Shown here: one piece after another, positions 4,361 to 29,205 of the stretch | How the letters are laid out: every line of letters starts with the position of its first letter | How positions within the stretch are numbered: position 1 is the first letter of the stretch | The notes under the pieces: generated by a model | Database searches by the model: none | Seen by the model: the letters and a program-made list of their open reading frames with translations, nothing else | Told to the model about the DNA's origin: nothing | Translations under genes and position numbers: made by a program | Assembly: GCA_965214905.1 (NCBI GenBank) | Contig: OZ243984.1 | Location: forward strand, 2,518,003-2,582,002 | Length of the DNA: 64,000 nucleotides | Direction: 5' to 3' | Origin: an uncultured Candidatus Binatia bacterium | Lineage (GTDB): Bacteria; Desulfobacterota; Binatia; UBA9968; JAJDTQ01

Positions 4361-4418
4361 GGTGAACCTCCGGTTGGTCAGCCGGGCCTTTGGCGTGGAG
4401 AAGGTTGTTCGGGGCGCT

Positions 4419-5789: not shown

Positions 5790-6806
5790 ATGGTCGCCGG
5801 CGCGGAGCCGTCCGAGTTGAAGGCCGTCCGGGTGCACGAACCGGGCGGCCCCGAGGTGCTCCACTACGAAGAGGTGGAGGCGCCCGAGCCTGGGGCGGAT
5901 GAGGCGTTGGTGGAGGTCGCGGCCGCGGGGGTCAACTACCTGGACATCTACTACCGCTCGGGTTTCCACTGGGGCGGACACCACCGGCGGGCGCTCCCCT
6001 ATATCCCCGGCGCCGAGGGCGCGGGCACCGTGCTGGCGGTGGGGCGCGGGGTCTCCGAGTTCCGGGTCGGCGACCGGGTCGCGTACGGTATTTCCAACGG
6101 CCAGGGTTCCTACGCTGATTTGGCCGCGGTGCCCGAGCGGCACTTGGTGCGGCTGCCGGGCGCCGTGGATTTTCAGTCCGCGGCCGCGGCCATGCTCCAG
6201 GGCATGACCGCCCACTACCTCACCCGCGACACCTACCCCGTCGGACCCGAAGACACCGTGCTCGTGCACGCCGCCGCCGGCGGCACCGGACTGCTGCTGG
6301 TCCGGATGGCGAAGATGCGCGGCGCCCGGGTGTTCGGCACGGTATCGACGCCGGAGAAGGCGCGCATCGCCGAGGAGGCCGGCGCCGATGCGCTCATCGA
6401 CTACGCTCACGCGGACTTCGCCGCCGAGGCGCGCCGGCTCACCGGCGGCCGCGGCGTCAACGTCGTCTACGATTCGGTGGGAAAGAGCACTTTCGATCAG
6501 AGCCTGGACGCATTGGCGCCGCGCGGCTGCATGGTGCTCTTCGGCCAGTCCAGCGGCGCCGTACCGCCCTTCGACACCGCGGTGCTGAATGCCAAGGGTT
6601 CGCTTGCCCTCAGCCGCCCGAGCCTGACACACCACACCACTCACCGGGCCGAGATCCTGGCCCGGGCCGGAGACGTGCTGCAATGGATCGAGGCGGGAAA
6701 GCTCGCCATCCGCATCGGCGTCACGCTTCCGCTGTCCCAGGCCGCCGAGGCCCATCGGCTGCTGGCAGCCCGAAGGACCGCCGGCAAGATCCTGCTGATC
6801 CCGTAG
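5790..6806 (+). CDS. NADPH:quinone oxidoreductase / zinc-binding alcohol dehydrogenase (MDR) family
   Basis: The product reads …KAVRVHEPGGPEVLHYEEVEAPEPGADEALVEVAAAGVNYLDIYYRSG… and carries the AAGGTG Rossmann motif, as in Qor-like enzymes. The start is uncertain; ATG 5790 is the first in-frame Met. Confidence 0.75.
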   Translation: MVAGAEPSELKAVRVHEPGGPEVLHYEEVEAPEPGADEALVEVAAAGVNYLDIYYRSGFHWGGHHRRALPYIPGAEGAGTVLAVGRGVSEFRVGDRVAYGISNGQGSYADLAAVPERHLVRLPGAVDFQSAAAAMLQGMTAHYLTRDTYPVGPEDTVLVHAAAGGTGLLLVRMAKMRGARVFGTVSTPEKARIAEEAGADALIDYAHADFAAEARRLTGGRGVNVVYDSVGKSTFDQSLDALAPRGCMVLFGQSSGAVPPFDTAVLNAKGSLALSRPSLTHHTTHRAEILARAGDVLQWIEAGKLAIRIGVTLPLSQAAEAHRLLAARRTAGKILLIP

Positions 6807-8291: not shown

Positions 8292-10226
8292 TCAAGCTAC
8301 TCGGCTGTCCCTGCCCCGGAAACCCCCCGTGGCCGCCAGAATGCCGACCAGACAGGCCCCGGCCACGTCCGTCCAGATGCCGTAGCCGACCCCTCCGGCC
8401 GGAAAGAACAACAGCGCTCCCGCGGCCAGAAACAGACCGCGGTGGACAGCGCCCAGAGGCTTTGCGAAAAAGCCCATGAAACCGGCCGACACCAGCCAGA
8501 CGCCGATGACGGCGGTGGCAGAGGTGTGAAGGATTTGAAGCGCCGAACCCTGCATGAGCAACTCCGGCGCCAGCACGAACAGGAACGGGACGACGTAGGC
8601 GGTCCAGCCGAAGTGGACCGCGGCGAACCCCGTGCGCATGAAATTGGCGCCGGCCACGGTGGCCGCGGTGAAGGCCGCCACCGCCACCGGCGGCGTGATC
8701 AGCGACAGCATGCCGAAGTAGAGGGCGAACAGGTGCGCCGCCATGGGCGGGATGCCGACCTCCACCATGGACGGGGTCACCAGCGTCGCCAGCAGCAGAT
8801 AGACCCCCAGGGTCGGCATGCCCATGCCGAGGACGATGGAGATCAGCGCCGCCAGCAGCAGGATCATGGCGGTCTGCCCCCCGGCCAGGTGGATGATGGC
8901 CTGGGTCAGGGCAAAGCCGAGGCCGGTGATGTTGAGGACCCCGATGATGATGCCGGCCATGCAGCTAATCATCAATAGCTGCACGCACAGGGCGCCGGTC
9001 TTGGCGAGGACGGTAAAGATGACCGTCCAGGACATGCGCTCGCCCTGGTAGCCGATGAACAGGCCGATGGGGACGAGGCTCCCGGCGGCCCACAGGGCCG
9101 AGGTCTCCGGCCTGAGGTTGAGGTAGAACAGGCACAGGATCACCACCGCGAACGGCGCCACGTAGGGCCAGCCGGCCCGGAACACCGGCCAGCGGGGCGG
9201 AATGGAGGCATCGTCGACGCGGGCGATATGTTCCCTTGCGGCGTAGAGATCCGCCTGGATGAACAGCGCCACGTAGTAGAGGATCGCCGGGATCAGCGCC
9301 GCCAGCACCACCTCCTGATAAGAGATCTGCAGGAATTCGGCCATGACGAAGGCGGCCGCGCCCATCATGGGCGGCATCAACTGGCCGCCGGTGGAAGCCA
9401 CGGCTTCGATGGCGCCCGCGGTATGGGCGGGGTATCCGCCCTTCTTCATCAGCGGGATGGTGATGACGCCGGTAGAGACCACGTTGGAGGTGGCGCTGCC
9501 GGAGATGGAGCCGAAAAGGGACGAGGCGGTGACCGCGATCTTGGCGGACCCGCCGCGGTACCGGCCCATGAGCGCGGTGGAAATGTCGGTGAAGAACCGG
9601 GAGCCGCCGGAGAGGTCGAGGAGGTTGCCGAAATAGATGAAGGCGATGACGATGGTGGTGGCCACCGTCAGGGGAATCCCCACCAGGGAGTTGGAGTCGA
9701 GGCTCAGATAGATCACCAGCCGGTCGATGTCGACGTCGCGCCCCTGGAACTGGCCGGGGATGAAGTGGCCCATAAGGCCCAGGGCGAAGAACGACAGCAG
9801 GAAGATGAACAGCACCGGGCCGGCGGTGCGGCGCACCCCCTCCGCCACCAGCACCAGGATCACCGCGCCTCCCACCAGGGCGTCACGGGGGCGCGTGTAG
9901 AGCTCCTCGAAGATCCGTTCGTAGTGCCAGCTCAGGTAGGCGCACACCAGCAAGCCGGCCGTTGCCGCCAGCGCGTCGAACCAGGGGACGCCGAGGCGTT
10001 TCGCCCCGTGCGTTGCCGGATTGAGGATATAGAGGGTTCCGAGCGCGAGGCCGAGCAACGCCAGCAGGCGCTGCTCGGCAAAGACCACGATGCCGACGGC
10101 CCGGTAGAGGTCGGCGGCCTCGGCCAGGGCCGCGGCCGTCAACAGTCCGCCGAGCAGGCGCCCGGCAATCCGCACCGTCCAGGACGCGGTCCCGGCCCGG
10201 ACGGTGTTTTCATCACCGCCGGTCAT
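8292..10226 (-). CDS. TRAP transporter fused permease (4TM/12TM fusion, TAXI-type system)
   Basis: The 644-aa product is highly hydrophobic and has a DctM-like C-terminal region. It is adjacent to a TAXI-family receptor gene. Confidence 0.85.
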   Translation of the reverse strand: MTGGDENTVRAGTASWTVRIAGRLLGGLLTAAALAEAADLYRAVGIVVFAEQRLLALLGLALGTLYILNPATHGAKRLGVPWFDALAATAGLLVCAYLSWHYERIFEELYTRPRDALVGGAVILVLVAEGVRRTAGPVLFIFLLSFFALGLMGHFIPGQFQGRDVDIDRLVIYLSLDSNSLVGIPLTVATTIVIAFIYFGNLLDLSGGSRFFTDISTALMGRYRGGSAKIAVTASSLFGSISGSATSNVVSTGVITIPLMKKGGYPAHTAGAIEAVASTGGQLMPPMMGAAAFVMAEFLQISYQEVVLAALIPAILYYVALFIQADLYAAREHIARVDDASIPPRWPVFRAGWPYVAPFAVVILCLFYLNLRPETSALWAAGSLVPIGLFIGYQGERMSWTVIFTVLAKTGALCVQLLMISCMAGIIIGVLNITGLGFALTQAIIHLAGGQTAMILLLAALISIVLGMGMPTLGVYLLLATLVTPSMVEVGIPPMAAHLFALYFGMLSLITPPVAVAAFTAATVAGANFMRTGFAAVHFGWTAYVVPFLFVLAPELLMQGSALQILHTSATAVIGVWLVSAGFMGFFAKPLGAVHRGLFLAAGALLFFPAGGVGYGIWTDVAGACLVGILAATGGFRGRDSRVA

Positions 10227-15749: not shown

Positions 15750-16055
15750 GGGGTCAAATCTTGGAGAATTACTCTATCCTCATTCCTGGTTGAGCCAGTT
15801 CGCCTCACAATGACGCCAGCCGTTCGGGTGCGGCAAACGCAGCGGTCTGGATGAAACGATGCCGATCTATGCGCTTCTTGCCTATGCGAGGGCGGCGCAA
15901 ACCGACCTGACACCCGATCAAAAGCGCGCGGTTTTGGCGCTCGCAGCCGCGCTTAAAGCTACACGGAAGGAGATGAAATGGGCAGATTTGGCGATGGCTT
16001 GATCTAGTCCCACCTCCAGCTATGAATCGATGGATTGTCCTTCCTATCCTCCATT

Positions 16056-17240
16056 TCAGAGGGCATCGTCGAGGCCCTCTGAAAAATCGGGAGTGGCTAT
16101 GATAGGAGAGCCGCCAATAGCCGACTGTACGGTTGTCTCGTTTATGTCGGACACCTCATCCTCTGCCGCTTTGCGGACAATGTTGCCGGCGGTTGAGAGA
16201 AGAAACCTCGGATGTAACATCCGTTGGTCTCCAAGCAAAACGCCCATACCAGCTTCCGTGAAGGGCTTTATGGTCCCTGCGTCGCTTTCGTTTATGCGAT
16301 AGTAGTCCAAGTGGGCGACTATAATGTCGCGGGCTTGGGTTTCGCTAGGCAAGGGCAATTCCACCGAATTAGGAGAAGTCGGGTCCAGGCGGGCGAAGGA
16401 CGATAATCCGGCTTCCCCCCAGGCCTGCGCCAAACCGACAGAAGCCTGCTGGTGGGTTGTCAGGACACTGGAAAAGAAGTTGTAAGACGTGTTGGCGTAG
16501 CCCGGTCGGACAGTGCAAAGCCCGAACTGTTTCGCGAATTCAATGCGATGCCGGCGTGCCATTTTGTCAACCAGGTTCTCGATATCGTCGATAAACAGAT
16601 AGCCGCCGGCGAATCCTGCCGCTCGCAAGTAATAAACCATGTCGTTGAAGAGCAACGAACGAGAGTAGTCCAGGCCTTTGGTATCTCGAGGAACGTAGAA
16701 GGGCTCAAGGCTCTCGTCTCTTCGCAAAGAGCGAAGGTAGTTCTCAAATTCGCCTTTAGCCAACTTCGTAGCCACGAGGGACCTTACTCCATCTTGCTGA
16801 AGCCGGGCTGCGATCTCAGCGTCCAGAGCGTCAGGCAAGATGCCCTTATCTTGCAAAATAGCATCGTCGAGTAAATTCTCGCCGCTCTGACTGCCGTCGG
16901 GGTTGGTCAGAACGGCACTGGCCTGCTCACTGGTCGGTGCACCCAACCGCAAGGCTGCCCTTGAAGATTTCAAGATAGCGTTTTTGCAGATATCAACCAA
17001 GGCAGACCAAGCCAGTTGCTCCATATGTCTGCGATCGACTTGAGAAGGGAAGGCAACGTAAATGACCGCCGCGGAGAATCGACTATTGAACTCGGTAGCT
17101 CCCCAGTCCTGGTTGATTCTATGCTGAAAGTAGCGGAGCAGGGCGATCTTACCCATCCCCCTCCCGCTCTGCTGGTCGCCTTTAGACCAGAGATAGGCCA
17201 GCCTTACTCGATTAGCGAAGTCGTCGGGGCAAATGAGCAA
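16056..17240 (-). CDS. hypothetical protein with P-loop-like motifs (noncanonical Walker A SGRGMGKIALL; Walker B-like YLFIDDIENL)
   Basis: The gene is visibly lower in G+C than the surrounding genome. A 71-aa ORF at 17204-17419 lies in another frame immediately upstream and overlaps it. This could mean a frameshifted single gene of about 455 aa. Confidence 0.45.
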   Translation of the reverse strand: MLICPDDFANRVRLAYLWSKGDQQSGRGMGKIALLRYFQHRINQDWGATEFNSRFSAAVIYVAFPSQVDRRHMEQLAWSALVDICKNAILKSSRAALRLGAPTSEQASAVLTNPDGSQSGENLLDDAILQDKGILPDALDAEIAARLQQDGVRSLVATKLAKGEFENYLRSLRRDESLEPFYVPRDTKGLDYSRSLLFNDMVYYLRAAGFAGGYLFIDDIENLVDKMARRHRIEFAKQFGLCTVRPGYANTSYNFFSSVLTTHQQASVGLAQAWGEAGLSSFARLDPTSPNSVELPLPSETQARDIIVAHLDYYRINESDAGTIKPFTEAGMGVLLGDQRMLHPRFLLSTAGNIVRKAAEDEVSDINETTVQSAIGGSPIIATPDFSEGLDDAL

Positions 17241-17418
17241 TCGTTCGATTTTTCAATTTCAGCCGCTACCGGCGACTCGGCATAGATGGCCCCGTTCCGA
17301 CGGGGATCGTCGCTGTAAGGGTCAGCCACGGGAGTAGCCGGGAAGGGCAAATCCTTTAGCCCCAGCAGTTTGTAAGGTGACTCGGTAGTTGTAGGATTTT
17401 GGATTGGCAGATTGACCA

Positions 17419-18513
17419 CTATGCCCTCCTCAACAGGTTGTATATCTGGCTTGACCCTCGGTTGCGAACCAGGGGTTTGCGCCGGCTGGAGATGTTCTCG
17501 TAGTTCAACCCCATAGTCAACGGCGCCGGCTGTAGATCCAGCAACTGGTTGACCCCTTCATCGAACACGGCTTCGGGAATGCGGAGTTCCTCGCAGACCG
17601 AGTCACGCACCTCGGGCAAGTCATAGTATCCGCCTCGAGGTGATAGCTTCTCGAAGATCTGGTCAATGACTTCCCAAAGCCTTTGTTGAGTCGCCTTGTC
17701 CGTCATATCCGGTTCACAAAAGTATATCGTGAAAGGGGAGGCGGAAGACGGTTCAATCGATAACTGCACATACCAGTCGTGCGGTGGAGAGTTGTCCACG
17801 CAGGGCGAATAGCTCTTCAAAAAATCGCACCCCTCGATGGTAGTAGAGTCTCTCGCGATGTTCAAAAGACGAAGGCTTACCAACCGATCAACGATAGACC
17901 TGAAAAGCGGTACCCTGATGCGGACACCCGGCAAGGCCCAATTTATCACCTTTTCTTGCAAGGCGTCCTCTATCTTCTTTGCCACTCCTCCCTGGAAACT
18001 TTCCCGGATGGTGTTTGCGATAGAGTCTGCCTTTTCGGCAAAGGTCGGTTCGAGCAGCCTTCGGAGGTACCCCTCCTGCTCAAGCTTGCCAGTTTCCACG
18101 GTGGGACGCCAAATACACCCTATCTCAAGGTGTTTCTGTACCACAGCTCGAAGGTTGTCGTAGGTCTCGATGTGAACGCTGGCCATAACACGCCGCAATT
18201 CCATGTGCTTACGGCTGTCCACCAGGTACATCACCTCTTTGCCTCGATCCGTAAGTTCGTATGCTCTTTTGGCCGAATTCGCGAACCCGAAATGAACCAA
18301 CTCACGGCAGACCTTTTCGCCAACGGTCTCGAAAGTTCCCCTCGGTTCAGGCAGTAGAAGCCGAAGAGCCTTGTTGCTGACGTATTTTCGAACGGAACGG
18401 GAGATAGTCTCCTCCTGTTCTTCTCTACGCGCGGTCAAGGGAAGACAGCCTAAGACCCTCAACCCGATGTAATGGTAACTTATATCGGAGATGTTGTAAC
18501 TAGATATGTTCAT
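17419..18513 (-). CDS. hypothetical protein (364 aa), possible winged-helix region
   Basis: No recognisable catalytic motif was found. The start overlaps the upstream gene stop (18510-18513) and the G+C is low. The stop TAG at 17419-17421 is immediately followed by GGAGGG-GTG of the next ORF. Confidence 0.45.
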   Translation of the reverse strand: MNISSYNISDISYHYIGLRVLGCLPLTARREEQEETISRSVRKYVSNKALRLLLPEPRGTFETVGEKVCRELVHFGFANSAKRAYELTDRGKEVMYLVDSRKHMELRRVMASVHIETYDNLRAVVQKHLEIGCIWRPTVETGKLEQEGYLRRLLEPTFAEKADSIANTIRESFQGGVAKKIEDALQEKVINWALPGVRIRVPLFRSIVDRLVSLRLLNIARDSTTIEGCDFLKSYSPCVDNSPPHDWYVQLSIEPSSASPFTIYFCEPDMTDKATQQRLWEVIDQIFEKLSPRGGYYDLPEVRDSVCEELRIPEAVFDEGVNQLLDLQPAPLTMGLNYENISSRRKPLVRNRGSSQIYNLLRRA

Positions 18514-19292
18514 CTTCGGCCGCTTGCCTCTCTAAACTTGGCCAGTAGATCCGTGCAGTCTCCGTTAAGCTGTCGCAGTTGTCGGCTCAAGGCCAAGGTC
18601 TGCAGGCCGCCGACGGCTTTCAGGACTATGGTATCTTCCGAGTGAAATCCACACCGGTTGGTTAGCCAAGTTTCGTTCAAGGCACGGGATAGACTGTTTA
18701 GTCCTACACAGAATTCCTCGAATTGATCCGTGGTTTCAGTAAGCAAGGGGATGCCTTTGTGAATTTCGGCGTTCATTCTCCAGGCGCTATCAATAAGAAC
18801 CGGCAGAGGCCGCACACCCGGCGCAATCGGATGGACGCCCAACCCTAAACAAGCGGCAAGCCCGCTTTCCTCAAAGGAAGTACTGGACATAAACGCAGGC
18901 AACACCTCTCGCATCAGTAGGGTAGGGTTAAAGGCCAGGTAATCCAGAATCTTGGCGAAGAAAATGACTATCTCATTTTTCTCCGTGGGATTTGCGGGGC
19001 GGTTTTTGATCTCCACAACGGCGACCAGATCCGAGGTTTGCGCCACGATGTCAACTTCGTGATGAACGCCAGACGCCGTGTCCAGCCCCTCCCCAAGCCA
19101 CATTTCTCGCTCTTGGGAGATTGTCCAATCCGAGAGGTTTTTCACACAGCTTTCCCGAAAGCGCATCTCGAACCCTTGGTCGCCCGTCGGTTCCCGGTTG
19201 ATATGTTGCCATTCCGAGTTGACGAACAAGTAACAGCGCTTCAAAAACTTAAGTGCCGTATCGGGAAGATAACTATCTTTCTGGATGTCCAC
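18510..19292 (-). CDS. hypothetical protein with PD-(D/E)xK nuclease-like motif (…HHEVDIVAQ…VAVVEIKN…)
   Basis: The product is 260 aa. A D…ExK motif sits on predicted beta-strands. It is the first gene of a three-gene low-G+C cassette at the trailer end of the CRISPR array. Confidence 0.45.
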   Translation of the reverse strand: MDIQKDSYLPDTALKFLKRCYLFVNSEWQHINREPTGDQGFEMRFRESCVKNLSDWTISQEREMWLGEGLDTASGVHHEVDIVAQTSDLVAVVEIKNRPANPTEKNEIVIFFAKILDYLAFNPTLLMREVLPAFMSSTSFEESGLAACLGLGVHPIAPGVRPLPVLIDSAWRMNAEIHKGIPLLTETTDQFEEFCVGLNSLSRALNETWLTNRCGFHSEDTIVLKAVGGLQTLALSRQLRQLNGDCTDLLAKFREASGRR

Positions 19293-19768
19293 TTGGAGAT
19301 CCCCTCATTTTTGGATCAGATGACACCGAAGATTTCACGGTACCGGGGTTGCTCCATCAGCATGTGGGCAAACTTCTCGACCAGTGGACGGAGTCGGTGC
19401 TCGGGCCAGTTCGGAATAGGCTCGTAGAGCATCGACCCTTGGCGAAATAGCGAGTGCGTGCGGCTCTTGACCGTGCTCGCCTTCAGCCACCGGTCATGGC
19501 CCAAGCTCTCGCCCGCTGCACCGAGCAACGTTAGCAAGGCAATCGACAGCGCGCTGAGAAGCAGCATGCGGTCGCGGCGCTGCGGCGCGCAAATCGCTCT
19601 GGAACCGGCTTGCGTCACCCGGAAGGGCCTACACCGACAGGACGCGAAATGTTCAGAATACAAATCGACGTTATATTCAGTAAGTTACGCATCTATTCTA
19701 AAGAAAATTATGAGGGGACCCCTAATATCGGGCTGCTGATCTGAAATTCTACAGCCAATATAACAGAA

Positions 19769-20232
19769 GTTCAATGTAGTCGATGGGTAGCGGGGGAGAG
19801 CGCTCGCACCCGGGCCTGAAGCCTCGCGACGGCCCCGTTTCAATCCGCTCCCCCCGCCGAAGCGGGGGGAGACACGGCGCCGCAGGCGGAAACGACGCCG
19901 GCAGAGACGTTTCAATCCGCTCCCCCCGCCGAAGCGGGGGGAGACACGGAGGCGGAGTGGGAGCGGCAGTTCGGGGCCGGGTTTCAATCCGCTCCCCCCG
20001 CCGAAGCGGGGGGAGACATCGAGGGTGACGTGTCGCTCTCGATGGAAGATCTGTTTCAATCCGCTCCCCCCGCCGAAGCGGGGGGAGACTGTTTTGGGTG
20101 GGTGCGGTTGGATGCCGGAAGTAGTTTCAATCCGCTCCCCCCGCCGAAGCGGGGGGAGACCGGTGATTACGGCGGTTACCGGGAAGCCGGGGTCGGTTTC
20201 AATCCGCTCCCCCCGCCGAAGCGGGGGGAGAC
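19769..20232 (-). CRISPR. CRISPR array, 37-bp repeat (minus-strand read: gtctccccccgcttcggcggggggagcggattgaaac), 7 repeats (trailer-most degenerate), 6 spacers of 34-35 bp
   Basis: Perfect repeats lie at 19837, 19909, 19981, 20053, 20124 and 20196. A degenerate repeat lies at 19769-19801. The repeat contains a 10-bp palindromic stem and ends …ATTGAAAC in the cas-gene orientation, as is typical for type I-C. An AT-rich leader sits on the cas2 side. Confidence 0.95.
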
Positions 20233-20413
20233 CCCACCCATTATAACTGGCAATATATCAAAAGGTTAGGTGTCCGGATGCGCGATCCGAGGAGATTGGG
20301 CGTCAGAGGACTCCTGTTCGATTGTCATGGAATGCAGTGATGCACTGTTATACAAGTCTTTACGAGTCGCGCGAAAGCAATGGCGAAACTCCCGCGCTGC
20401 ACGTTCGCGCAAG
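20233..20413 (-). promoter_or_regulatory. CRISPR leader (AT-rich) between cas2 and first repeat
   Basis: The sequence reads cccacccattataactggcaatatatcaaaaggttagg…. It is AT-rich relative to the locus and sits adjacent to the newest repeat. Confidence 0.6.
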
Positions 20414-20704
20414 CTACAAGATCAGCGGATCGTTCAAATTCACGGGCTCTTTTACCCCGTAGTGTTCCGTACTGTCCTTGACGTCTTCATCCAGATGATA
20501 GACTCTCAGGGAGTCCTGCTCGGGGTCGATCTCGTCCAGCAGGCGATTTTTGAGCGTAGCCCATTCGGTTCTTCCGACTTGACATTCAAAAACCGACTTT
20601 TGCACCCGGACCCCATAATCCTCGCACGCCCTTGCCACACGTCGGAGGCGTTTCTGCCCTACCTTGTCAGCGGTGGAGACGTCATAGGCGATCAGAATGA
20701 ACAT
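20414..20704 (-). CDS. cas2: CRISPR-associated endoribonuclease Cas2
   Basis: The product reads MFILIAYDVSTADKVGQKRLRRVARACEDYGVRVQKSVFECQV…, a classic Cas2 N-terminus. It begins 4 nt after the cas1 stop. Confidence 0.9.
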   Translation of the reverse strand: MFILIAYDVSTADKVGQKRLRRVARACEDYGVRVQKSVFECQVGRTEWATLKNRLLDEIDPEQDSLRVYHLDEDVKDSTEHYGVKEPVNLNDPLIL

Positions 20705-20708
20705 GGCG

Positions 20709-21788
20709 TTACTTGGGAATGAACGGGATATAATCGGGAATGTCGCCACGAAGCGTTCGGGCCAACAGCTTGGCCTGGATGCTGAACACCTGCCCGAGGC
20801 GGATGTTCCCCTTGAACAGAGCGTGCTTTATTTCCGTTTGCTTGCGACGCTGCCAGGTTTGGATAACTTCTTTTCTGCCTCGGTCGGTAAATTCCACTAC
20901 GCCTCCTTCTCGCTCTCGAAAGTGCCTGGGCTCGATTTGACGCCGGTTGATCAGGGTCAACGCCAATCGCTCCGCCAGACAGGGCCGGAACTCTTCCATC
21001 AGATCGAGGGCGCAGGCGGGCCTGCCCGCCCGCGTCGTATGGAGCCAGCCGACGTATGGGTCCAGTCCGGCGGTTGTCAATGCGGCCAGGCAATCGTGGC
21101 GGACCAGTGCATAGATGAAAGACAGCAGGCAGTTGATCCTGTCTCGTGGCGGCCGCCGGGTGCGGGTGAAGAATCGGAAGTCATTCCGTTGTTGCTTGAG
21201 CATGTGTTCGAACACGGAGAAATATACTTTGGCTCCGATGCCCTCCAGTCCCCGGATCGGGTCCAGCGTCGCCCGAAGGCTGGCACTTTGGTCGACCGGT
21301 GGGGCGTTTCCAGGCATGGACTTGGCCGCAAGTTGACGAATCAGTCGGGCAAGCTCGACCGCGGCGCCAGCCAATGCCACATGGTCCGATTCCTCATCCG
21401 CTTCCCGGGCGGACCGTAAGAGGTTGGAGCGCGAGTTTTGCAGCTTCCCGGCGACGATTTGCCGCGCGATGCGGGCCGCCTCCACGGGACTGTCAGCCGC
21501 CGCGTACTGAGCACGGCGCAGCAAGTAGCGCGTGTCGCCACTTCCCATCACCTGAGCCAGCAGGTAGCCGTTCTCCGTGTGGTAGTGGATCGCAACCTGA
21601 TGCTCCCAGCACAGGGCCATGGCGGGGGGCGTCACGACGACCTGTCCGAAGGCGCAGACGCTTTCCAGATGGTGGATCGGCAGGGTCAGGCGGGTTTGCT
21701 TTTCGACCTCGACCCGGAGCGTCAGATGATCCCGATGCACCACGGTTCCCGGCGTGGTCAGGTAGAGAGTGTTTTGAACGACGGCCAT
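20709..21788 (-). CDS. cas1: CRISPR-associated endonuclease Cas1 (type I-C-like)
   Basis: The 359-aa product begins MAVVQNTLYLTTPGTVVHRDHLTLRVE… and contains conserved Cas1 acidic and His residues. Confidence 0.9.
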   Translation of the reverse strand: MAVVQNTLYLTTPGTVVHRDHLTLRVEVEKQTRLTLPIHHLESVCAFGQVVVTPPAMALCWEHQVAIHYHTENGYLLAQVMGSGDTRYLLRRAQYAAADSPVEAARIARQIVAGKLQNSRSNLLRSAREADEESDHVALAGAAVELARLIRQLAAKSMPGNAPPVDQSASLRATLDPIRGLEGIGAKVYFSVFEHMLKQQRNDFRFFTRTRRPPRDRINCLLSFIYALVRHDCLAALTTAGLDPYVGWLHTTRAGRPACALDLMEEFRPCLAERLALTLINRRQIEPRHFREREGGVVEFTDRGRKEVIQTWQRRKQTEIKHALFKGNIRLGQVFSIQAKLLARTLRGDIPDYIPFIPK

Positions 21789-21829
21789 GGGGTGTCACGG
21801 GTCCGTGCAGGCCGTAAAGCCGCTGATCG

Positions 21830-22480
21830 CTACTCCCCGGTTTCGAACACTCCCCGAGAGAGCCGCGCCAGCATGGGTGGAGCGCTGGTGATCTCTGGAA
21901 GGCAGTGGTCGAAAAGTGAACATTCCGAACATTGGGGCTTGTGGATCGCTTTAGGGACCGTTTCCTGTTCGATGAGCCGGTGCACGGCTTCAATGGCCTG
22001 CTCGGTGAGGCACCGCAGTTCTTGGGTAAATTCCACCTCTCGGCGGCGCTTGCTCTTGGCGTGGAAGATGGCGCCTCTCGAAACCTCGATCCCGAACATT
22101 TCTTCCAGGCACAGAGCCTGGGCGCAAAGCTGGGCGTCGTCGTTGTCGAACTTGCGGCGTTTGCCTTTCTTGAACTCAACCGGGGTCAGCGAGCCATCGG
22201 AACGACGTTCGACAATGTCGCACTTGCCGCTGAGCCCGAGTCGGTCCGACCACACGGGCAAGGCACGCAACAGGGTCACACCCCTGACGGTTTCATAGCC
22301 GGAAGTATCGGTCTGTTCGTGAACGCTATCGCCGATAACCGTGTGCTCGTTGGCATCTCGCCATCCTTCGACTGCCTTCAACGCTGCCCTGCGATGGCAG
22401 TAGAGGAAATCGTTGATGAGCGAGAGGGGAAACATCTCCCGCTCGACAGTGTCTGAAGAGCCGTCGGGGCAACGCTGCAT
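21830..22480 (-). CDS. cas4: CRISPR-associated exonuclease Cas4 (RecB-like nuclease with C-terminal Cys cluster)
   Basis: The product reads …FLYCHRRAALKAVEGW… and carries a C-terminal CSECSLFDHC Fe-S Cys motif. An alternative start exists at 22435. Confidence 0.85.
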   Translation of the reverse strand: MQRCPDGSSDTVEREMFPLSLINDFLYCHRRAALKAVEGWRDANEHTVIGDSVHEQTDTSGYETVRGVTLLRALPVWSDRLGLSGKCDIVERRSDGSLTPVEFKKGKRRKFDNDDAQLCAQALCLEEMFGIEVSRGAIFHAKSKRRREVEFTQELRCLTEQAIEAVHRLIEQETVPKAIHKPQCSECSLFDHCLPEITSAPPMLARLSRGVFETGE

Positions 22481-22481
22481 T

Positions 22482-22886
22482 CTATTTTGCGGTTTTACCG
22501 GCGTCGAACCGCATTCTTCTGCCGGCCTTTAACAGAACAGCCGGCAATCGCTTCAGTTCCTCACTGCGTGGGTCCACCTCGAACCCACCGGATTCCAGGG
22601 CGGTAACGCCAAGTAACGGCTCCACCCCCTCATCGCCGTACACGACGGTCCCGCCAACGACTTCTCCTTGAAACTCGATCTCGGCGATGGTGATGTCCAA
22701 GGCGACGGACTTGCCATCCGCAAGCACGTACTCTCGGCGGCCTCTCGGTTCAAGCCCGATTGCTTCGAGGCAGGCTCTCGGTACAAGCGAGTCGAACGCA
22801 CCGGTACCAACTAGAAACTTGCTGGTCCAGCTCCGGCTCGGGTTCGCGGGATTGCGGATCGTGACATCAACGTAAGTCGCGCCCAT
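22482..22886 (-). CDS. hypothetical small protein, retropepsin-like (clan AA aspartyl-protease-like) fold candidate, translationally coupled to cas4
   Basis: The product is 134 aa: FLVGTGAFDSLVPRACLEAIGL…ADGKSV…LLGVTALESGGFEVDP. This resembles retropepsin-like domains, but with GTGA in place of DTGA. Its stop (22482-22484) lies 1 nt from the cas4 ATG (22478-22480). Confidence 0.45.
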   Translation of the reverse strand: MGATYVDVTIRNPANPSRSWTSKFLVGTGAFDSLVPRACLEAIGLEPRGRREYVLADGKSVALDITIAEIEFQGEVVGGTVVYGDEGVEPLLGVTALESGGFEVDPRSEELKRLPAVLLKAGRRMRFDAGKTAK

Positions 22887-23042
22887 TCTGGTTCCCTTCG
22901 GGTTGGTTACGGCTTCACCGAACCCCGTTGCGGTTGCAATCGCATTCTACGCCGACCTGAAATGACCGGAGAAAGGGTTGCTGAAACAGAACGAGGCAGC
23001 ATCGGGATCAGCGATACTTGGCCTTGAAATTCCAGATCAGCG

Positions 23043-25391
23043 TTACAGAATGATCCCTCCGTCACGCTGCGACTCCAGCAAGGGGAGCAGGCCCTTCCAG
23101 TAACCAAGAAACTCGTCGTAGCAGTTTGGTTGAATGCCTACCAACTCACTGTCACGACTCAGTGGTCGGGTGACGGGCAGATCGTTCTGTCTGGTTTTCC
23201 AGACCTGCACGCTATGACGCATGATTTCTGCGGGCGACGGAAACTCCTTGGGATCCCTCGCTTGAAATCGCTCTATCAAGTCCTGACTGACAAGCACCGT
23301 GAGTGTATCCTCGGCGATGATCCGGCAGCGGTTGGCAACTTCGGGATAGTCCCCATCTTCTTCGGCTTCAATGATATGCTGAGCCCCGATCTCGGTCCCG
23401 CCAAAACCCGAAATGACTTCTCGACGCAAGGCTTCGGTGCAGTGTTGCGGACTAAGAAGTTCGCCGTGTTCGATAAACATCTTGTCAAGCACCTTTCGCG
23501 AACTTTTGAACCCGGGGTGCAGGTTCAGAAAACCGGATTCGTCGTGTGCGAAATCCCATACCTCCGCTTGAGTGTATTCGCCGTTTCGATTGACCCGTCC
23601 GGCGACCTGGAGAAGGCTGGTCAGGCTGCAGCGTTCACGAAAGGCGGTACGAAAGGAAAAGTCCACCCCGGCTTCTATGCAACTCGTGGCTACCAGGATC
23701 CAGTCCCTGTCGCCTCTATTGCCGAGACGCTGCCTGATTCGGGAAACAATTGCCGATCGATGCGCAGGACAGATTGCCGTAGAGAGATGCTCTACTCGTG
23801 AGTCTGTCTCGCCCGTCCATTCACGACCTGGATAGAATCGACTCCACAGAAATTTGGCCAGGACAGCGGCAGATTGCACCGTGTTCAGAATTATCAACCG
23901 AGGCCCTGGTTTGTCCTTCTCAAGAACAAAGTCCGCCAACTTTTCGAGGGTCAACCGATCGTCGTGCCTCTTGAGAGATACCCGGTGGCCTTCGGAAGCG
24001 TCGGCCTGATCCTTCGATTCCCCAACGACGAGTGGAGGTACGGAGGGCCGTCGCTCAACCGGAACGAAGTCCTCCAGTTCCCAAAAACGTGGCAGCGAAC
24101 CACTGGCGAGGACGACGTGGCAGTTCCAGTCCTCGCATAGTTCTTGCAGCCAACGCCAGTGCTGAGGCCACAGCGGCGCCGGCACGGCTGCGTGTGCTTC
24201 GTCTACGAAGACTGCTGAACCCGGTACTTGATGGAGCTTGCGGAGCGCAGCGGTCCGATTCGCGGCGAGCGTCTCGAAAAACTGCACCGCCGTGGTCACG
24301 ACGATTGGCGCTTCCCAACGCTGCGCCAACTGCCGCAACTCTCTCCATTGTTCACCGCTGAACTCGACTCTGTGATGGTGAGCGGCAACCACCGATTCAG
24401 GGTCTTCACCGGGCAACACCAATGCCTTGCGATAAACGTCAACAGATTGATCGATGATGTTGGTGAACGGCAGGACCACGAACACCCGGCGCAAGCCGCG
24501 TTTATCAGCGACCCGCAGGAGATGTGCCATTACGGCAGAGGTCTTGCCGGTTCCGACCGGACTTTCACAGGCGACCATCCGTTCGCCGTTCTCAAGTTCC
24601 CGGTCGCGACAGGCTCGGTAGACGCTCTGTCGCAACCGAAGCCGTGTCGTCTCCGCTGGGGACGTGCTGGATTGGTTGCGTCCGAGGTTTTCTACGTAGC
24701 GGTCCAAGGCTTGTAAACGTTCGGCAGCTCTCAGTAGGGCGCCGTCCAACTCCCGCTCTTCCCGATAATGTTGCGCGGTGTCGCTATGATCTCCGTCCAC
24801 AAGACAGGATAGGGCTAGGCGACGGACCAAGCCGGTAAAGCAAGGTCGGGGATCGCCGGCGGGAGGGGGTTTGACGGGTTTGACGACATCGGCATGTTGA
24901 TGGAGATAGCCGTCAAGCAGTTTGTCCGTTCTCTCCCAGGACACTGCGTCCATGCCGTTCAGCTCTTTTCCGTCACGCAAGAAGAGGGATCGTTCTGTTC
25001 CTTCGTCATCAAATTTTGCTTTTGCTCTCTCCTTAGGCAGTGACGGCAAGCCAATGTGATGGCTGAAGCAGCATATCGCCGCTTCACCCAGCTTCCGCTT
25101 CAGCAGGTGAGCGGTGCCTGCCTCGACATGATTGAAACCTTCCTCATTGGGGCGGTTGCGGTACAGAATGTCCTGGAAGATTTCGTCCAACTTGCCGAGA
25201 TCGTGATAAGTGGCGGCCAATTCCACCACCGCCTGAAAAAATTCCCGCTCTGAATATGTCACCGCCGCTTCGCGAGCAAACTTGGCTGCAAGGCGGCGTA
25301 CGTTGGCTACATGTTCACGGTAGCTCTGCCCCGGTGAGCCTCGTCGGGCACTATGGGCCAGAGCGGAATGGTTGGAGGACGACATGCTCAT
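23043..25391 (-). CDS. cas3: CRISPR-associated helicase/nuclease Cas3 (HD domain + SF2 helicase)
   Basis: The 782-aa product has an N-terminal HD motif (…TYHDLGKLDE…) and a VFVDEAH DExH box. Its start overlaps the cas7 stop (TAATG). Confidence 0.9.
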   Translation of the reverse strand: MSMSSSNHSALAHSARRGSPGQSYREHVANVRRLAAKFAREAAVTYSEREFFQAVVELAATYHDLGKLDEIFQDILYRNRPNEEGFNHVEAGTAHLLKRKLGEAAICCFSHHIGLPSLPKERAKAKFDDEGTERSLFLRDGKELNGMDAVSWERTDKLLDGYLHQHADVVKPVKPPPAGDPRPCFTGLVRRLALSCLVDGDHSDTAQHYREERELDGALLRAAERLQALDRYVENLGRNQSSTSPAETTRLRLRQSVYRACRDRELENGERMVACESPVGTGKTSAVMAHLLRVADKRGLRRVFVVLPFTNIIDQSVDVYRKALVLPGEDPESVVAAHHHRVEFSGEQWRELRQLAQRWEAPIVVTTAVQFFETLAANRTAALRKLHQVPGSAVFVDEAHAAVPAPLWPQHWRWLQELCEDWNCHVVLASGSLPRFWELEDFVPVERRPSVPPLVVGESKDQADASEGHRVSLKRHDDRLTLEKLADFVLEKDKPGPRLIILNTVQSAAVLAKFLWSRFYPGREWTGETDSRVEHLSTAICPAHRSAIVSRIRQRLGNRGDRDWILVATSCIEAGVDFSFRTAFRERCSLTSLLQVAGRVNRNGEYTQAEVWDFAHDESGFLNLHPGFKSSRKVLDKMFIEHGELLSPQHCTEALRREVISGFGGTEIGAQHIIEAEEDGDYPEVANRCRIIAEDTLTVLVSQDLIERFQARDPKEFPSPAEIMRHSVQVWKTRQNDLPVTRPLSRDSELVGIQPNCYDEFLGYWKGLLPLLESQRDGGIIL

Positions 25392-26320
25392 TAGCCATCG
25401 AGCGCATAGTCTTGGTACTTGCCGCAGTTCGAGAATGTTCTACTGGACCCGAATCGGACAGGGTTGTCCTTGATTGCGTCCCATGTCGGAATTTCGTAGT
25501 CGTCCAGCGATTCGGAGGGCTTGTCCATCGCCGTCTTCTTGCGAGGCGTCAGGGCATCCAACAGGGCGAAATCGGACAACGAACCGCGTCGCTCATTGTG
25601 GGTGAAGACGTGAGCGTGAATGATCTCAACCATTGTTCGGACAACGGAGCGGGTGTGCGGATAAGCCAGAGGCAAAAGCTCAAGCATCAGCTTAACGTCG
25701 GTCTCCGTGCATCCCGTCTTGTGGGCCAAACCGGGATTGACAAAGAAAGGAACCGTATAAACTCCATGTTTGACGACGCGAAACGCCATGGGCGCCATGC
25801 CGCGGTCCTTGCCTGTTTCAACGCCTGATTTGCTCGTCCATGTTGAATACTCGATGTCTATCGGAGCCACGGAAACGCCGACACCAAAGTGTGCCACCCC
25901 GGTACGGATTGTGTCTCCACTGCCTTCTTCGAGGAAGGTGTTCCCAAACAGGCGTCCGTCCCAATAGGCTTCCTTGAACCCTTGAGAAAGTCGATGGTTA
26001 CCTTCCTTTTCCATGAGCTTGCGAATTTCTTCGCGGTTTCGCCCTCGCTGCTCGAGAATCTTAAATTCGTCGTCCGCCTGAATCTCCAACTTTTCTTTGA
26101 CTTCCTGCCACACCACGCCCTCCTTTTCCAGAACAAGATCGCGGAGCTTCCGTTTGAAAGACACCGGCGAGATCTCGCCCTTACCGTCCGGGCGCTGGCG
26201 AGGGGAGCCTTCGCGCTCGGGGTCGCCGTTGGGGTTGGATTTCCGTACCTCGATCACAAGCAGGCCAGTGATGCGAGGGACTTGCGTTTCGGTCCTGGTA
26301 CCGTGTTCCTGTGTGGACAT
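25391..26320 (-). CDS. cas7: Cas7 (Csd2/Cas7c family, type I-C)
   Basis: The product reads MSTQEHGTRTETQVPRITGLLVIEVRKSNPNGDPEREGSPRQ…PVSFKRKLRDLV, matching the Csd2 N-terminal signature NPNGDP…. Confidence 0.8.
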   Translation of the reverse strand: MSTQEHGTRTETQVPRITGLLVIEVRKSNPNGDPEREGSPRQRPDGKGEISPVSFKRKLRDLVLEKEGVVWQEVKEKLEIQADDEFKILEQRGRNREEIRKLMEKEGNHRLSQGFKEAYWDGRLFGNTFLEEGSGDTIRTGVAHFGVGVSVAPIDIEYSTWTSKSGVETGKDRGMAPMAFRVVKHGVYTVPFFVNPGLAHKTGCTETDVKLMLELLPLAYPHTRSVVRTMVEIIHAHVFTHNERRGSLSDFALLDALTPRKKTAMDKPSESLDDYEIPTWDAIKDNPVRFGSSRTFSNCGKYQDYALDG

Positions 26321-26324
26321 AGGG

Positions 26325-28514
26325 TTAGGCTTCCGTTTCGGTTTTCGGATGATCGGCGAGGTAGCCGAGAAGGAGTTGAGCCTTGTGAACGTCTTCCATG
26401 CGATCCGGCAGTTCGGCAACGTCGATGTGGCGTTCACGCTCGCCCATCTGACGAACAAACCAGTGAATCAATCCTGCGTCCTTACCCGAGTAGGTGTCTG
26501 CCCAGCCTTTGTACGGCCGGACGCGCTCGGCGAGGCGAGCAAGCGCCGACAGCGGATTGTCGAGGGCAAGGTTGAACAGTGAGTTTCCAAGCAACTCGGA
26601 TGGCGCTTCGACGTCGCCATTTTTTCGCTTCTGATCCGGGGTACGAACCCACTTGCAGTACTGCAGATGCAGGCCGTCGGCCAAGGCTAGCAGTCGCCCT
26701 ATCTGATAGGTCGAGTCTTGCATAAACTGATCCTTTGAATGTCCGAGTTGTTGAAGGAGAATGCCGATAAGCGAGATCGTCTTCCTGCACTGCCAACGAA
26801 CGTTGTCGCTCAGGTCTTTCCAACGACAACTGGTCTTGACACTTCCAAGGCCGACAAGAACCGGAGATGTCCGATGCAAAAGGAGCGAGAAACACAGGCA
26901 TGTCTTGTTCCGTGATATCGGCCCATCGGAAAAGAACAGGTCGTAGGCATCCGATGTGGTGACAGCACGTTGAAAGGATGAGGCGAAGCCGTTTTTGGCA
27001 TCTGATCTCCAGACACGATTAATGACTGACGTCAGGTCGAGCGGATGAGGCACAAAATGAGACTTCCAGTCGGCCTTCATTTCTTTCTTGTTAGGAAACC
27101 AGATGGAAACAGGCGGTGTGTTGGCGGCTCCAGTCTTCCATTCCTGAGCCGCGCGAATGATGTCCTGCACACGGAACTGGCGATGCAGGCTGACTTGCTT
27201 GCGTCCCTTGTCGATTTCACATAGAGTCAGAAGTCGAGCCGTCAAGTTCGGTTGTTCCTGTAATTTGCCCTCAAGGGCGTTAAGCACGGACCGTGTTCGT
27301 TCGGCAAAATCCGCATCTCCAAATCTTTGTGCCTCGCCACCGAATAGTTCGGCCAACTGTTCCTGGAAGTCTGGCGCTTGCTCCAGGTAGGCGATCAGCA
27401 GGTCGTTCCGGTTTCTGCCTGGAATTCCTCGCCATGTCAAACCTTCCTCTCTCTTCTCGTCGCCGAGGTAAAGCAGTGCGTTGTTCATTCTCTGTACGAC
27501 CGGTGTAGATGCCGGAAACTGCATGGATCCCTTCAGTCCGTAGCGACGAAGTGCCTTGATCTCGTCCGTGTTTACAGAGAAAAGCTTCACGTCACCGAGG
27601 TTTGCGACTTTGGGGGTCGGGTATTTGTCTTGCAAGAGACCTTGGTTTCCAAATGCGTCCAATTCACCCTGGTCGGATTGAGGTTTGACTGTATCGTGTC
27701 TGAGCATGAACTCGTTTATTGCCTTGCTGGTGTCCGGGTGAGCGACGGCTTTATGATTGAGATCGATCTTGGCCACATCGAAATATACGGGTTGGTTGGT
27801 GTTCTTAGCGTTCTTATCTTGCTTGGTCTTTTCCGACCAGTAGGCGTCCGAGCCCAGCTTGGCCATGCGCTTTCTCCAGTCGAGCACACCGAACAAGCCT
27901 TGTTGTATCAGGCAGAGATCCTCGCGATCAGCGGTTGCTGACGTGTGGAGAAAGGTGTCGGTCAGATTCCGGCTGAACCGATTCAGATCGAGTTCGGTGC
28001 GCCCCGCTACGTCCAGCAGTCGTGTAAAGTTGCTCAGTCCCGGTGTTGCCGTGCCAAGCATTTTTTGAAGCTCGTGAACCAACTTGACGACCGAGCGCCT
28101 GAACTGGCTGCACTGGGAGCTCGTGAACGGACGCGGCTGGGATAACTCGACCATCTTCGCAAGGGCATTGCAAATCTGCCTGGTCGGTGGGTTCTTTTCC
28201 TTCCACAAACCACAAAGCCGTTCCAAAACGGGGGTTAATCGGGTAGATGTGGATGTCGAATCAAGATGGCGAAGCGGTGTTGGGATGTTGAGTCCGGGAA
28301 AGCTGGAGCCCGATGAGCCGTGCTCCACGCGAAATAGACGGGCCGCCTTGTCACCTGGAACGAACTCCACTTCGGCTGGTCCGGCATCGTCGTTCAGTCG
28401 CACGATCAACAATTTCCTGGTTTTTGCCATCGGCTTGATACGCGGGTGTCGCGATGGCGGAACGATGCCCACTCGATCCATAGCCTGCGAGACGAGATAG
28501 AGCTCGTTAAGCAT
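26325..28514 (-). CDS. cas8c: Cas8c (Csd1-like large subunit)
   Basis: The product is 729 aa. It sits between cas5 and cas7 with the overlapping and coupled junctions typical of Cascade operons. Confidence 0.7.
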   Translation of the reverse strand: MLNELYLVSQAMDRVGIVPPSRHPRIKPMAKTRKLLIVRLNDDAGPAEVEFVPGDKAARLFRVEHGSSGSSFPGLNIPTPLRHLDSTSTSTRLTPVLERLCGLWKEKNPPTRQICNALAKMVELSQPRPFTSSQCSQFRRSVVKLVHELQKMLGTATPGLSNFTRLLDVAGRTELDLNRFSRNLTDTFLHTSATADREDLCLIQQGLFGVLDWRKRMAKLGSDAYWSEKTKQDKNAKNTNQPVYFDVAKIDLNHKAVAHPDTSKAINEFMLRHDTVKPQSDQGELDAFGNQGLLQDKYPTPKVANLGDVKLFSVNTDEIKALRRYGLKGSMQFPASTPVVQRMNNALLYLGDEKREEGLTWRGIPGRNRNDLLIAYLEQAPDFQEQLAELFGGEAQRFGDADFAERTRSVLNALEGKLQEQPNLTARLLTLCEIDKGRKQVSLHRQFRVQDIIRAAQEWKTGAANTPPVSIWFPNKKEMKADWKSHFVPHPLDLTSVINRVWRSDAKNGFASSFQRAVTTSDAYDLFFSDGPISRNKTCLCFSLLLHRTSPVLVGLGSVKTSCRWKDLSDNVRWQCRKTISLIGILLQQLGHSKDQFMQDSTYQIGRLLALADGLHLQYCKWVRTPDQKRKNGDVEAPSELLGNSLFNLALDNPLSALARLAERVRPYKGWADTYSGKDAGLIHWFVRQMGERERHIDVAELPDRMEDVHKAQLLLGYLADHPKTETEA

Positions 28515-29157
28515 AGAACAGCATTCCCTTATGGACTTTGATCCCCTGGCTGAAGCTTGGCTTTACGCGACCTTGCTGCGGGCGGTCGAATACCATGCGC
28601 AACATCGATGGCAGCTCATGACTCTCGGTCTCGCACACCCGTGTTCCCGAGCGAAACGGTCCTACGTAATCCGGGACGAATTCCTTCCATCCAAGGCAGG
28701 GCGTACAAAACCACCGGCCGTTCCCCAATCGACGGTTGAAGACATCCTGAAAGGCATGGGGCGAACATTGACCGTCCGGTGCCTTTGCTCGTTCGCCGTT
28801 TGGCCCGCGATTCCAGTCCACCTCGGCGTAGAGCCGATAGCAAACGTTCACCAGGACCATAGCGAATAACTGGAACGATGCGCGTTTTCTTCTTGCGTCA
28901 GATGCACGCAAGGGTCCTCCATAGTTGGTAACGTAATGATGAAACTGGACCGGCCGACAAATTTCTACCTTGACCGGCCTCACGTTGACGGATTTCCAAC
29001 GAAGGACGGACTCGAAGATGCCTTTCGCGGCGCTGAAGGTGGGCGCTACATAGGAAACCGGGGAGGAACCGGTATCCGGCCGGGTCCACATCGCGGTTGG
29101 GCCGGAGATTTCGAATTGGACTGCGTAGGATTTCATCGTTTCTCCATATGCATGCAT
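28507..29157 (-). CDS. cas5: Cas5 (Cas5c/Cas5d-like, type I-C)
   Basis: The 216-aa product reads …FEISGPTAMWTRPDTGSSPVSYVAPTFSAAKGIFESVLRWKSV…, matching the Cas5d N-terminal pattern. No cas6 is present in the locus. Confidence 0.75.
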   Translation of the reverse strand: MHAYGETMKSYAVQFEISGPTAMWTRPDTGSSPVSYVAPTFSAAKGIFESVLRWKSVNVRPVKVEICRPVQFHHYVTNYGGPLRASDARRKRASFQLFAMVLVNVCYRLYAEVDWNRGPNGERAKAPDGQCSPHAFQDVFNRRLGNGRWFCTPCLGWKEFVPDYVGPFRSGTRVCETESHELPSMLRMVFDRPQQGRVKPSFSQGIKVHKGMLFYA

Positions 29158-29205
29158 TTTTACCAGTCCGGTTGGAAACGCTCAACGCGCCTCTCATGAT
29201 GGCGT

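Follow-up and report, generated by a model that had tools for sequence, protein, structure and literature searches.

Type I-C CRISPR-Cas systems, such as those of D. vulgaris, B. halodurans and N. lactamica, combine Cas5c, Cas8c, Cas7c, a Cas3 with fused HD and helicase domains, Cas4, Cas1c and Cas2. Their canonical operons begin with cas3, ahead of cas5, and lack cas6, which is normal for the subtype; Cas11c has been reported to arise by internal translation within cas8c, and DNA interference goes with a 5'-TTC protospacer-adjacent motif (PAM). Two other subtypes share traits with the locus described here. In I-B, the Cascade genes are separated from cas4-cas1-cas2 by cas3, cas5 follows cas7, and Cas6b and Cas8b are present. 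In I-G (formerly I-U), Csx17/Cas8u occurs with Cas5 fused to Cas6 and Cas4 fused to Cas1, and the repeat type is similar, with 36-37 nucleotides (nt) and the ending ATTGAAAC. We analyzed a CRISPR-Cas locus in a 64,000-nt stretch of DNA, referred to as the window, from an uncultured Candidatus Binatia bacterium (contig OZ243984.1, positions 2,518,003 to 2,582,002). It is highly probable, taking all parts of the reading together, that this is a complete I-C locus of a divergent lineage in which the position of cas3 was inherited and modules have recombined, and which holds a CRISPR-linked accessory or regulatory gene encoding a small retropepsin-like protein, here called asp.

The locus occupies the minus strand from 29157 to 19769, where eight successive open reading frames (ORFs) are followed by a CRISPR array. 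In the direction of transcription the order is cas5, cas8c, cas7, cas3, an ORF of 134 amino acids (aa), cas4, cas1, cas2, leader and array, exactly as described in an earlier note on this DNA that was made from its sequence alone. The same note had assigned the locus to subtype I-C. This was borne out by typing the proteins with NCBIfam, Pfam and PADLOC profiles, a PDB sequence search and AlphaFold2 modeling followed by Foldseek: all seven core proteins are nearest to I-C across the three profile collections, and the Cas8 model and Cas5 structures agree. Cas1 (20709-21788) scores 412.7 bits with TIGR03640, the I-C Cas1c model, against a curated cutoff of 385. Cas4 (21830-22480) reaches 124.8 bits with NCBIfam Cas4, and Cas2 (20414-20704; 96 aa, true start M16) 67.9 bits with TIGR01573, both above the cutoffs; their best PADLOC matches are Cas4c (223 bits) and Cas2c (130 bits), respectively. 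The three are separate genes, with 41 nt between cas4 and cas1 and 4 nt between cas1 and cas2.

The large subunit is a Cas8c of a divergent lineage (26325-28514) with 729 aa, about 120 more than canonical Cas8c. It matches the PADLOC Cas8c profile PDLC01562, labelled CAS-I-C, with an E-value of 3.9e-121 over profile positions 1-649 of 658, and its family profile found no match among PDB sequences. The AlphaFold2 model has a mean predicted local distance difference test (pLDDT) score of 70.8, and its top four Foldseek matches are D. vulgaris I-C Cas8c chains (E = 2e-5 to 7e-3, probability 1.0), followed by a I-B Cas8 with an E-value of 0.1. The C-terminal helical domain of the model resembles the Cas11c chain 8dex_J (probability 0.93, template modeling (TM) score 0.65). 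Across the window and 34 related loci (35 sequences in total), M598 is invariably encoded by ATG, and in many of them an AAGGA-like purine-rich stretch precedes it by 6-11 nt. As in canonical I-C, a Cas11c is probably translated from within cas8c; the candidate cistron would run from M598 to the cas8c stop (26325-26723) and encode 132 aa.

The cas5 gene (28507-29157), whose start is probably M8 at 29136 by analogy to the 209-aa homolog in the related locus L063, encodes a protein that had been called Cas5d-like. Cas5c is indeed its best PADLOC profile (72.5 bits), Pfam Cas_Cas5d is above cutoff, and its PDB matches are I-C Cas5c chains or ones annotated as crRNA-processing, crRNA being CRISPR RNA (8g9t, 3vzi, 8dej, 7kha, 3kg4, 4f3m and 9w6c). 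Cas7 (25391-26320; 309 aa from M47) carries the NPNGDP motif from which the Csd2 type had been proposed, and NCBIfam Csd2 (I-C, TIGR02589) is its best subtype-specific model, with 116 bits versus 43 bits for Csh2 (I-B); Pfam Cas_Cas7 gives 156 bits. The start listed for this ORF at 26458 is a spurious upstream TTG, and homolog alignments begin at M47. Cas3 (23043-25391) is a single ORF with an HD nuclease domain (residues 25-206) fused to a superfamily 2 (SF2) helicase core (residues 275-608), and it matches PADLOC Cas3c with an E-value of 3.4e-110 and the NCBIfam Cas3 HD domain model above cutoff. At the junctions, cas5 and cas8 overlap by 8 nt, 4 nt lie between the cas8 stop and the cas7 start, and cas7 and cas3 overlap by 1 nt (TAATG). 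Overlaps had been claimed on both sides of cas3. The one at its start is present, but its end is followed by a 156-nt spacer (22887-23042). Beyond it lies the extra small gene that had been reported between cas3 and cas4, the 134-aa ORF asp (22482-22886), whose retropepsin-like nature had not been recognized; its stop is 1 nt from the cas4 ATG. A scan of the locus for promoters and terminators gave counts not above those of shuffled sequence, and the cas3-asp interval yielded no significant promoter.

Several of the scores weigh against the I-C assignment. The NCBIfam I-C models remain under their curated cutoffs for Cas5 (Cas5c, 42.8 bits), Cas7 (cutoff of 182 bits) and Cas8 (Csd1, 20 bits against a cutoff of 219), and Pfam gives no match for Cas8, missing Csd1; therefore the effector is remote from characterized I-C systems. 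Equivalents of the catalytic residues of B. halodurans Cas5d are not clearly conserved in the window Cas5; N. lactamica Cas5, annotated as the processing endonuclease, deviates at these positions too. The top NCBIfam match of Cas3 is a partial one to I-G, and the PADLOC Cas3b models are also strong (255 bits). Together with the location of cas3 between the Cascade genes and cas4, which is that of I-B, these Cas3 matches and the sub-cutoff scores of the I-C effector models would suit an effector module of another subtype, either I-B without cas6 or I-G, that only resembles I-C. We consider this very unlikely. No match to Cas6b or Cas8b was obtained in NCBIfam, Pfam and PADLOC searches of the window proteins, the I-B arrangement with cas5 after cas7 is not found in the window, and the I-B genes of another asp-bearing locus, L054, were undetected with window proteins as queries. 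Cas8u and a Cas5-Cas6 fusion are likewise missing, cas4 and cas1 are separate ORFs, and the effector genes match I-C models. Furthermore, the Cas7 scores and the Cas8 model comparison both favor I-C over I-B, Cas5 matches only I-C Cas5c-type structures, and the repeat is the same as in canonical I-C loci. No other subtype has a canonical order that fits cas5-cas8-cas7-cas3-cas4-cas1-cas2: a I-B locus requires cas6 and cas8b, and a I-G locus csx17 along with a cas4-cas1 fusion. The outcome that the earlier note had named as refuting its reading, effector genes of another subtype with a matching canonical order, was therefore not obtained. As for cas6, none was found between the alpha/beta-hydrolase gene and the array, and related loci showed no further conserved gene; the earlier note was correct about this absence but had treated it as an anomaly, whereas it is the I-C norm.

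The sequence between cas2 and the first repeat was read as a leader of 181 nt (20233-20413), and the array extends from 20232 to about 19769, on the same minus strand. It consists of six perfect 37-nt repeats, GTCTCCCCCCGCTTCGGCGGGGGGAGCGGATTGAAAC, and one degenerate terminal repeat (about 19801-19769), with five spacers of 34-35 nt between the perfect repeats and a sixth of 35 nt ahead of the degenerate one. The polarity of the array is fixed because the degenerate repeat is at the end opposite the leader. The repeat ends in ATTGAAAC, as had been stated and as in canonical I-C, and the predicted fold of its RNA (-24.4 kcal/mol, z = -3.7) is a GC stem of 10-11 bp closed by a UUCG loop, from which a 3' tail of 10 nt ending in AUUGAAAC hangs free. 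The canonical I-C loci L047, L057 and L060 have nearly identical repeats, whereas canonical I-C systems at large differ from the window in that its repeat is 37 nt; Rfam gave only a sub-threshold match to CRISPR-DR9.

The mechanism can be proposed by analogy to characterized I-C systems. At the 3' base of each repeat hairpin, Cas5c would cleave the pre-crRNA, so that the next crRNA carries a ...AUUGAAAC handle, and Cas5, Cas8, Cas7 and Cas11 would assemble a Cascade complex able to locate PAM-flanked DNA. The HD-helicase Cas3 would then be recruited by Cascade and degrade the DNA, while Cas4-Cas1-Cas2 would add newly acquired spacers to the array at its leader end. Some observations speak against an active locus: no target was found for two spacers scanned among viral contigs or for all six in the window itself, the array is small, and a fragment of an IS4 insertion sequence (IS) transposase abuts its trailer. 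No PAM could be derived because no protospacer was found. The few spacers, the transposase fragment and the loss of the catalytic residue in asp, as well as a related contig (P0241) in which cas4 and cas1 are deleted, might be expected of a decaying, non-functional remnant. This is improbable, since none of the seven cas ORFs is truncated, their junctions are coupled, the six repeats are perfect and a leader is present. The transposase fragment is a C-terminal one (19316-19663, minus strand; NCBIfam NF033591, E = 1.4e-8) and lies directly past the degenerate repeat.

The Cas8 protein has 210 detectable homologs, and a scan for its relatives in one genome per species, across 185,579 species, gave 36 loci. 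These come from metagenome-assembled genomes of Verrucomicrobiota, Planctomycetota and Latescibacterota, with a few under other labels. Mapping of the window proteins onto the related loci (numbered L001 onwards together with the other contexts compared) showed a uniform architecture: cas7 is followed by cas3 in 31 of 31 informative loci, the full order cas5-cas8-cas7-cas3-cas4-cas1-cas2 is found in 24, and cas3 lies upstream of cas5 in none. The typical I-C order with cas3 first, which is not a defining criterion of the subtype, was found neither in the window nor in any informative related locus. In all these loci the repeats are 37 nt long and built as GTCGCCCCG...hairpin...GCGGATTGAAAC. 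Two loci, L063 and L053, show the exact arrangement of the window with a small ORF between cas3 and cas4; in L063 the Cas8 is 82% identical to that of the window and the flanks are syntenic.

The position of cas3 after cas7 is a fixed trait of a divergent I-C lineage and not a local rearrangement. The earlier note had described a rearranged I-C variant; the order does differ from canonical I-C, but it is no event of this genome, being shared by all informative relatives. A single rearrangement of a canonical locus in this genome, with cas3 moved downstream of cas7, could appeal to L037, L047, L057 and L060, canonical I-C loci of related genomes that begin with cas3. It is nevertheless extremely improbable, because the cas7-then-cas3 order recurs in every informative related locus across several phyla, and because the window effectors share just 23-30% identity with their counterparts in the canonical I-C loci examined; the lineage is old and separate. 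The architecture is that of an I-C-like cas5-cas8-cas7 block with cas3 in an I-B-like position, and some Cas3b profiles score well. A literature search for this gene order found no paper describing it; the lineage is already catalogued through a PADLOC-DB profile labelled I-C, though little described.

Some members of the lineage show further changes. Tandem or partial duplications of cas5 are found upstream of cas8 in L028 and L032 (8793-9981) and in L035 (176-478 and 1854-2480). L020 (13145-14547) is a decayed member in which cas3 has a large internal deletion, cas4-cas1-cas2 are missing and the array comes directly next.

Comparison of individual proteins points to an exchange of modules. 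Between L053 and the window, the effector proteins show identities of 28% (Cas8), 44% (Cas3), 53% (Cas5) and 54% (Cas7), and the downstream block shows 88% (asp), 81% (Cas4), 85% (Cas1) and 72% (Cas2). The canonical I-C locus L047 (cas3-cas5-cas8c-cas7-cas4-cas1-cas2) has a Cas4, Cas1 and Cas2 that are 82, 84 and 72% identical to those of the window and a repeat different at three positions, with effector proteins only 23-30% identical. Two very different effector sets use essentially one repeat, and the adaptation module and repeat of the window are interchangeable with those of canonical loci. Because an adaptation module and repeat are shared by loci with very different effectors, modules have recombined at the junction upstream of cas4, and the two I-C lineages appear to have swapped effector and adaptation modules. 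Between cas3 and asp (5872-5965), L053 retains an N-terminal remnant of cas4 and a perfect 16-nt repeat fragment, GGGGAGCGGATTGAAA, a recombination scar at the effector/adaptation junction. L001 shows a decayed asp copy with a DAG motif and frameshifts (8817-9172) followed by a copy of the promoter, and, just before its variant cas5, a short ORF similar to the Cas3 N-terminus, MEYYAHEGQSLVEHLRAVA (9240-9365); together they look like the footprint of a replaced canonical I-C module. The asp gene sits precisely at the effector/adaptation recombination junction upstream of cas4. A repeat remnant was also considered in the cas3-asp spacer of the window and rejected, as 44% of shuffled sequences score equally well.

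The locus has a GC content of 57% against 64-66% in the flanks and forms part of a low-GC island at about 16000-29200; its lower GC supports horizontal acquisition. In the same island, on the minus strand (16056-19292), lie three successive ORFs of 394, 364 and 260 aa. Pfam and PADLOC gave nothing for them, and the one NCBIfam match, YraN-like and sub-threshold at 19.7 bits, concerns the 260-aa ORF; they may be cargo or a defense module acquired with the locus. A 1.7-kb ENA contig, P0241, encodes a 201-aa product joining asp, with an intact DTG motif, to Cas2 fragments, which indicates that cas4, cas1 and most of cas2 were probably deleted in a close relative of the window locus.

The asp product scores 72 bits with NCBIfam TIGR03698 (clan AA aspartic protease), above cutoff, and matches Pfam gag-asp_proteas. 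Its monomeric model is confident for residues 1-95 and of low confidence for the C-terminal 40 residues, and Foldseek retrieves the simian, human and feline immunodeficiency virus proteases at probability 1.0. About 1,600 homologs were found, of which the best 120 are 77-100% identical and belong to uncultured bacteria, Latescibacterota and Gemmatimonadota among them; clustered at 50%, the wider family comprises about 1,900 representatives. Members of the asp family are mostly 123-131 aa long and about 75-90% identical to one another. The motif FLVDTGAFDS is present in 10 of 11 aligned homologs, and one L002 copy has E in place of the catalytic Asp (ETG). In the window the motif reads FLVGTGAFDS, with GTG for DTG (D27G; GGT codon at 22808-22806), so judged by its sequence this copy is probably without proteolytic activity; its closest relative, P0242, retains the catalytic D. 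The ratio of non-synonymous to synonymous substitution rates (dN/dS) of asp is 0.04-0.12, with synonymous sites near saturation, and the gene is under strong purifying selection. L063, the nearest relative of the window, has a second, divergent retropepsin-like gene (3977-4384, minus strand; 135 aa, DSG motif) located between the alpha/beta hydrolase and cas5, on the opposite strand to these genes, which is absent from the window.

Conservation of asp at the DNA level covers the ORF and a short region of promoter and 5' untranslated region (UTR). Where asp heads a unit, a promoter-like CTTGCA is conserved, followed by 17 nt enclosing the palindrome GTGAACAAAATTTCAC, then CACTATAAT and a conserved 5' UTR; the palindrome is a candidate operator. 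The CTTGCA-N17-CACTATAAT element fronts asp or cas operons and often has WYL regulators, a known kind of defense regulator, in its vicinity. It occurs just upstream of asp in L037, L047, L061, L062 and L002, and also in L001 (9185-9215). The window keeps only the 5' UTR part, which the last ~25 nt of the cas3-asp spacer resemble in an alignment of asp upstream regions.

The sample of asp contexts consists of the best matches to the window copy and is non-random, biased to its relatives and partly non-independent; within it, asp adjoins cas genes or arrays in roughly 13 of about 22 informative contexts, an adjacency far above random placement. The linked systems are I-C (variant and canonical), I-B, I-E and I-G, besides array ends. 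In variant I-C, asp lies between cas3 and cas4 in the window, L063 and L053, and directly before cas5 in L002 and, decayed, in L001. In canonical I-C it is located between cas7 and cas4 (L057/58/59 and L060) or directly before cas3 (L037/38, L047/48 and a second copy in L057/58). In other systems it is found upstream of the I-B operon in L054 and, at 6 kb and adjoining a WYL regulator, in L066, and between a WYL regulator and the I-E operon in L061. All of these copies are on the same strand as the cas genes. In L043, asp is divergent from the I-G gene Cas_GSU0053, 340 nt apart, and in L045, L051 and L052 it lies 90-230 nt past the last repeat of long arrays. In L064/65, L067 and L039 it occurs with WYL genes or fragments only. 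Across Latescibacterota and Gemmatimonadota-type genomes, asp recurs as the first cistron of type I cas units or just upstream of cas4. The Gemmatimonadota-type contigs L054 and L064-L067 show the conserved synteny ctpB-ftsX-ABC-lactamase_B-ybjQ-asp followed by a variable island. In some genomes this island contains I-B cas genes together with a WYL regulator, in others only WYL/WCX fragments plus Nmad3 and other genes. A further possibility, that asp is a trait of the whole variant I-C lineage, was rejected, as a hidden Markov model (HMM) finds none in the Verrucomicrobiota and Planctomycetota loci.

These contexts suggest that asp is a CRISPR-linked accessory or regulatory gene. The stronger proposal, that the family truly serves the type I systems of bacteria (I-B, I-C, I-E and I-G) as an accessory or regulatory component, its gene heading the effector or adaptation transcription unit under a conserved promoter with an operator and frequently beside WYL regulators, is one that we make tentatively, at somewhat less than even confidence. 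Its main rival takes asp for a passenger unrelated to CRISPR immunity that lands in permissive cas junctions, and we consider this about equally probable. Identified by reading translations alone, the genes that fill the cas3-cas4 gap in L004, L009, L014, L026, L022, L011 and L033, or the cas4-cas1 gap in L003, L012 and L032, encode ParE/RelE-like proteins with ribbon-helix-helix (RHH) partners, Phd-like and PIN/DUF433-like proteins, an IS200-like transposase, and four-helix-bundle proteins of the 23S-rRNA intervening sequence (IVS) type. Such varied small genes in the gaps of Verrucomicrobiota loci mark both junctions as permissive insertion sites, and a cas3-cas4 slot that holds toxin-antitoxin genes or a transposase also fits hitch-hiking of asp. 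Copies without a cas neighbor (L056, L041, L049 and second copies in L001 and L002), pseudogenes among the cas-linked copies (L001b and L047) and the D27G change of the window copy all count on the side of a passenger.

Against a passenger, the linkage recurs for five types of effector with orientation unchanged, asp either heading the operon or immediately preceding cas4, and one locus, L057, shows both positions. The strong purifying selection and the co-occurrence of WYL regulators with asp also speak for a role in these systems, and no transposon ends are present, conservation stopping at the ORF; on the same ground, asp as part of an IS or a miniature inverted-repeat transposable element (MITE) was rejected. 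As a phage, plasmid or anti-CRISPR gene, asp gave no match in a pattern scan of viral contigs or in the searched phage and plasmid collections, and PADLOC has no model for it.

The closest described protein is the archaeal 'Asp_prot' Saci_1895, a CRISPR-specific non-core protein of ~100 aa with a retropepsin domain from Sulfolobales type III-D loci (PMC3973734, Vestergaard et al. 2014). Going by this description, both are small retropepsin-domain proteins tied to CRISPR loci, but asp is bacterial and linked to type I systems, with members about 75-90% identical. A literature search for a bacterial CRISPR-linked aspartic protease found nothing beyond the archaeal Asp_prot, and the surveys of CRISPR-linked genes in the searched literature do not mention an aspartic protease. 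Among proteins of known structure, Rickettsia APRc (PDB 5c9b) shares with the asp family its fold and a hydrophobic-hydrophobic-D-T-G-A motif. The match of the family profile across this catalytic motif is weak (E = 0.006), however, and the window copy has G for the catalytic D. APRc itself is anchored in the membrane and is not known to be connected with defense.

The I-C core of the locus is divergent but ordinary, and asp is the part worth following. The architecture of the lineage might represent a form intermediate between those of I-B and canonical I-C. Because Cas8, Cas7 and Cas5 fall under the NCBIfam cutoffs, annotation pipelines may leave such proteins unnamed. The exchange of modules with the repeat kept would mean that very different Cas5/Cas8/Cas7 sets can use one repeat type. 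To our knowledge, proteases have so far been known as partners of type III systems only, and asp is a testable candidate for an accessory factor of type I systems. If this proved true, no protein of protease fold would have been tied functionally to type I systems before it, and a possible role would be the control of Cas protein levels, of adaptation or of a response to infection.

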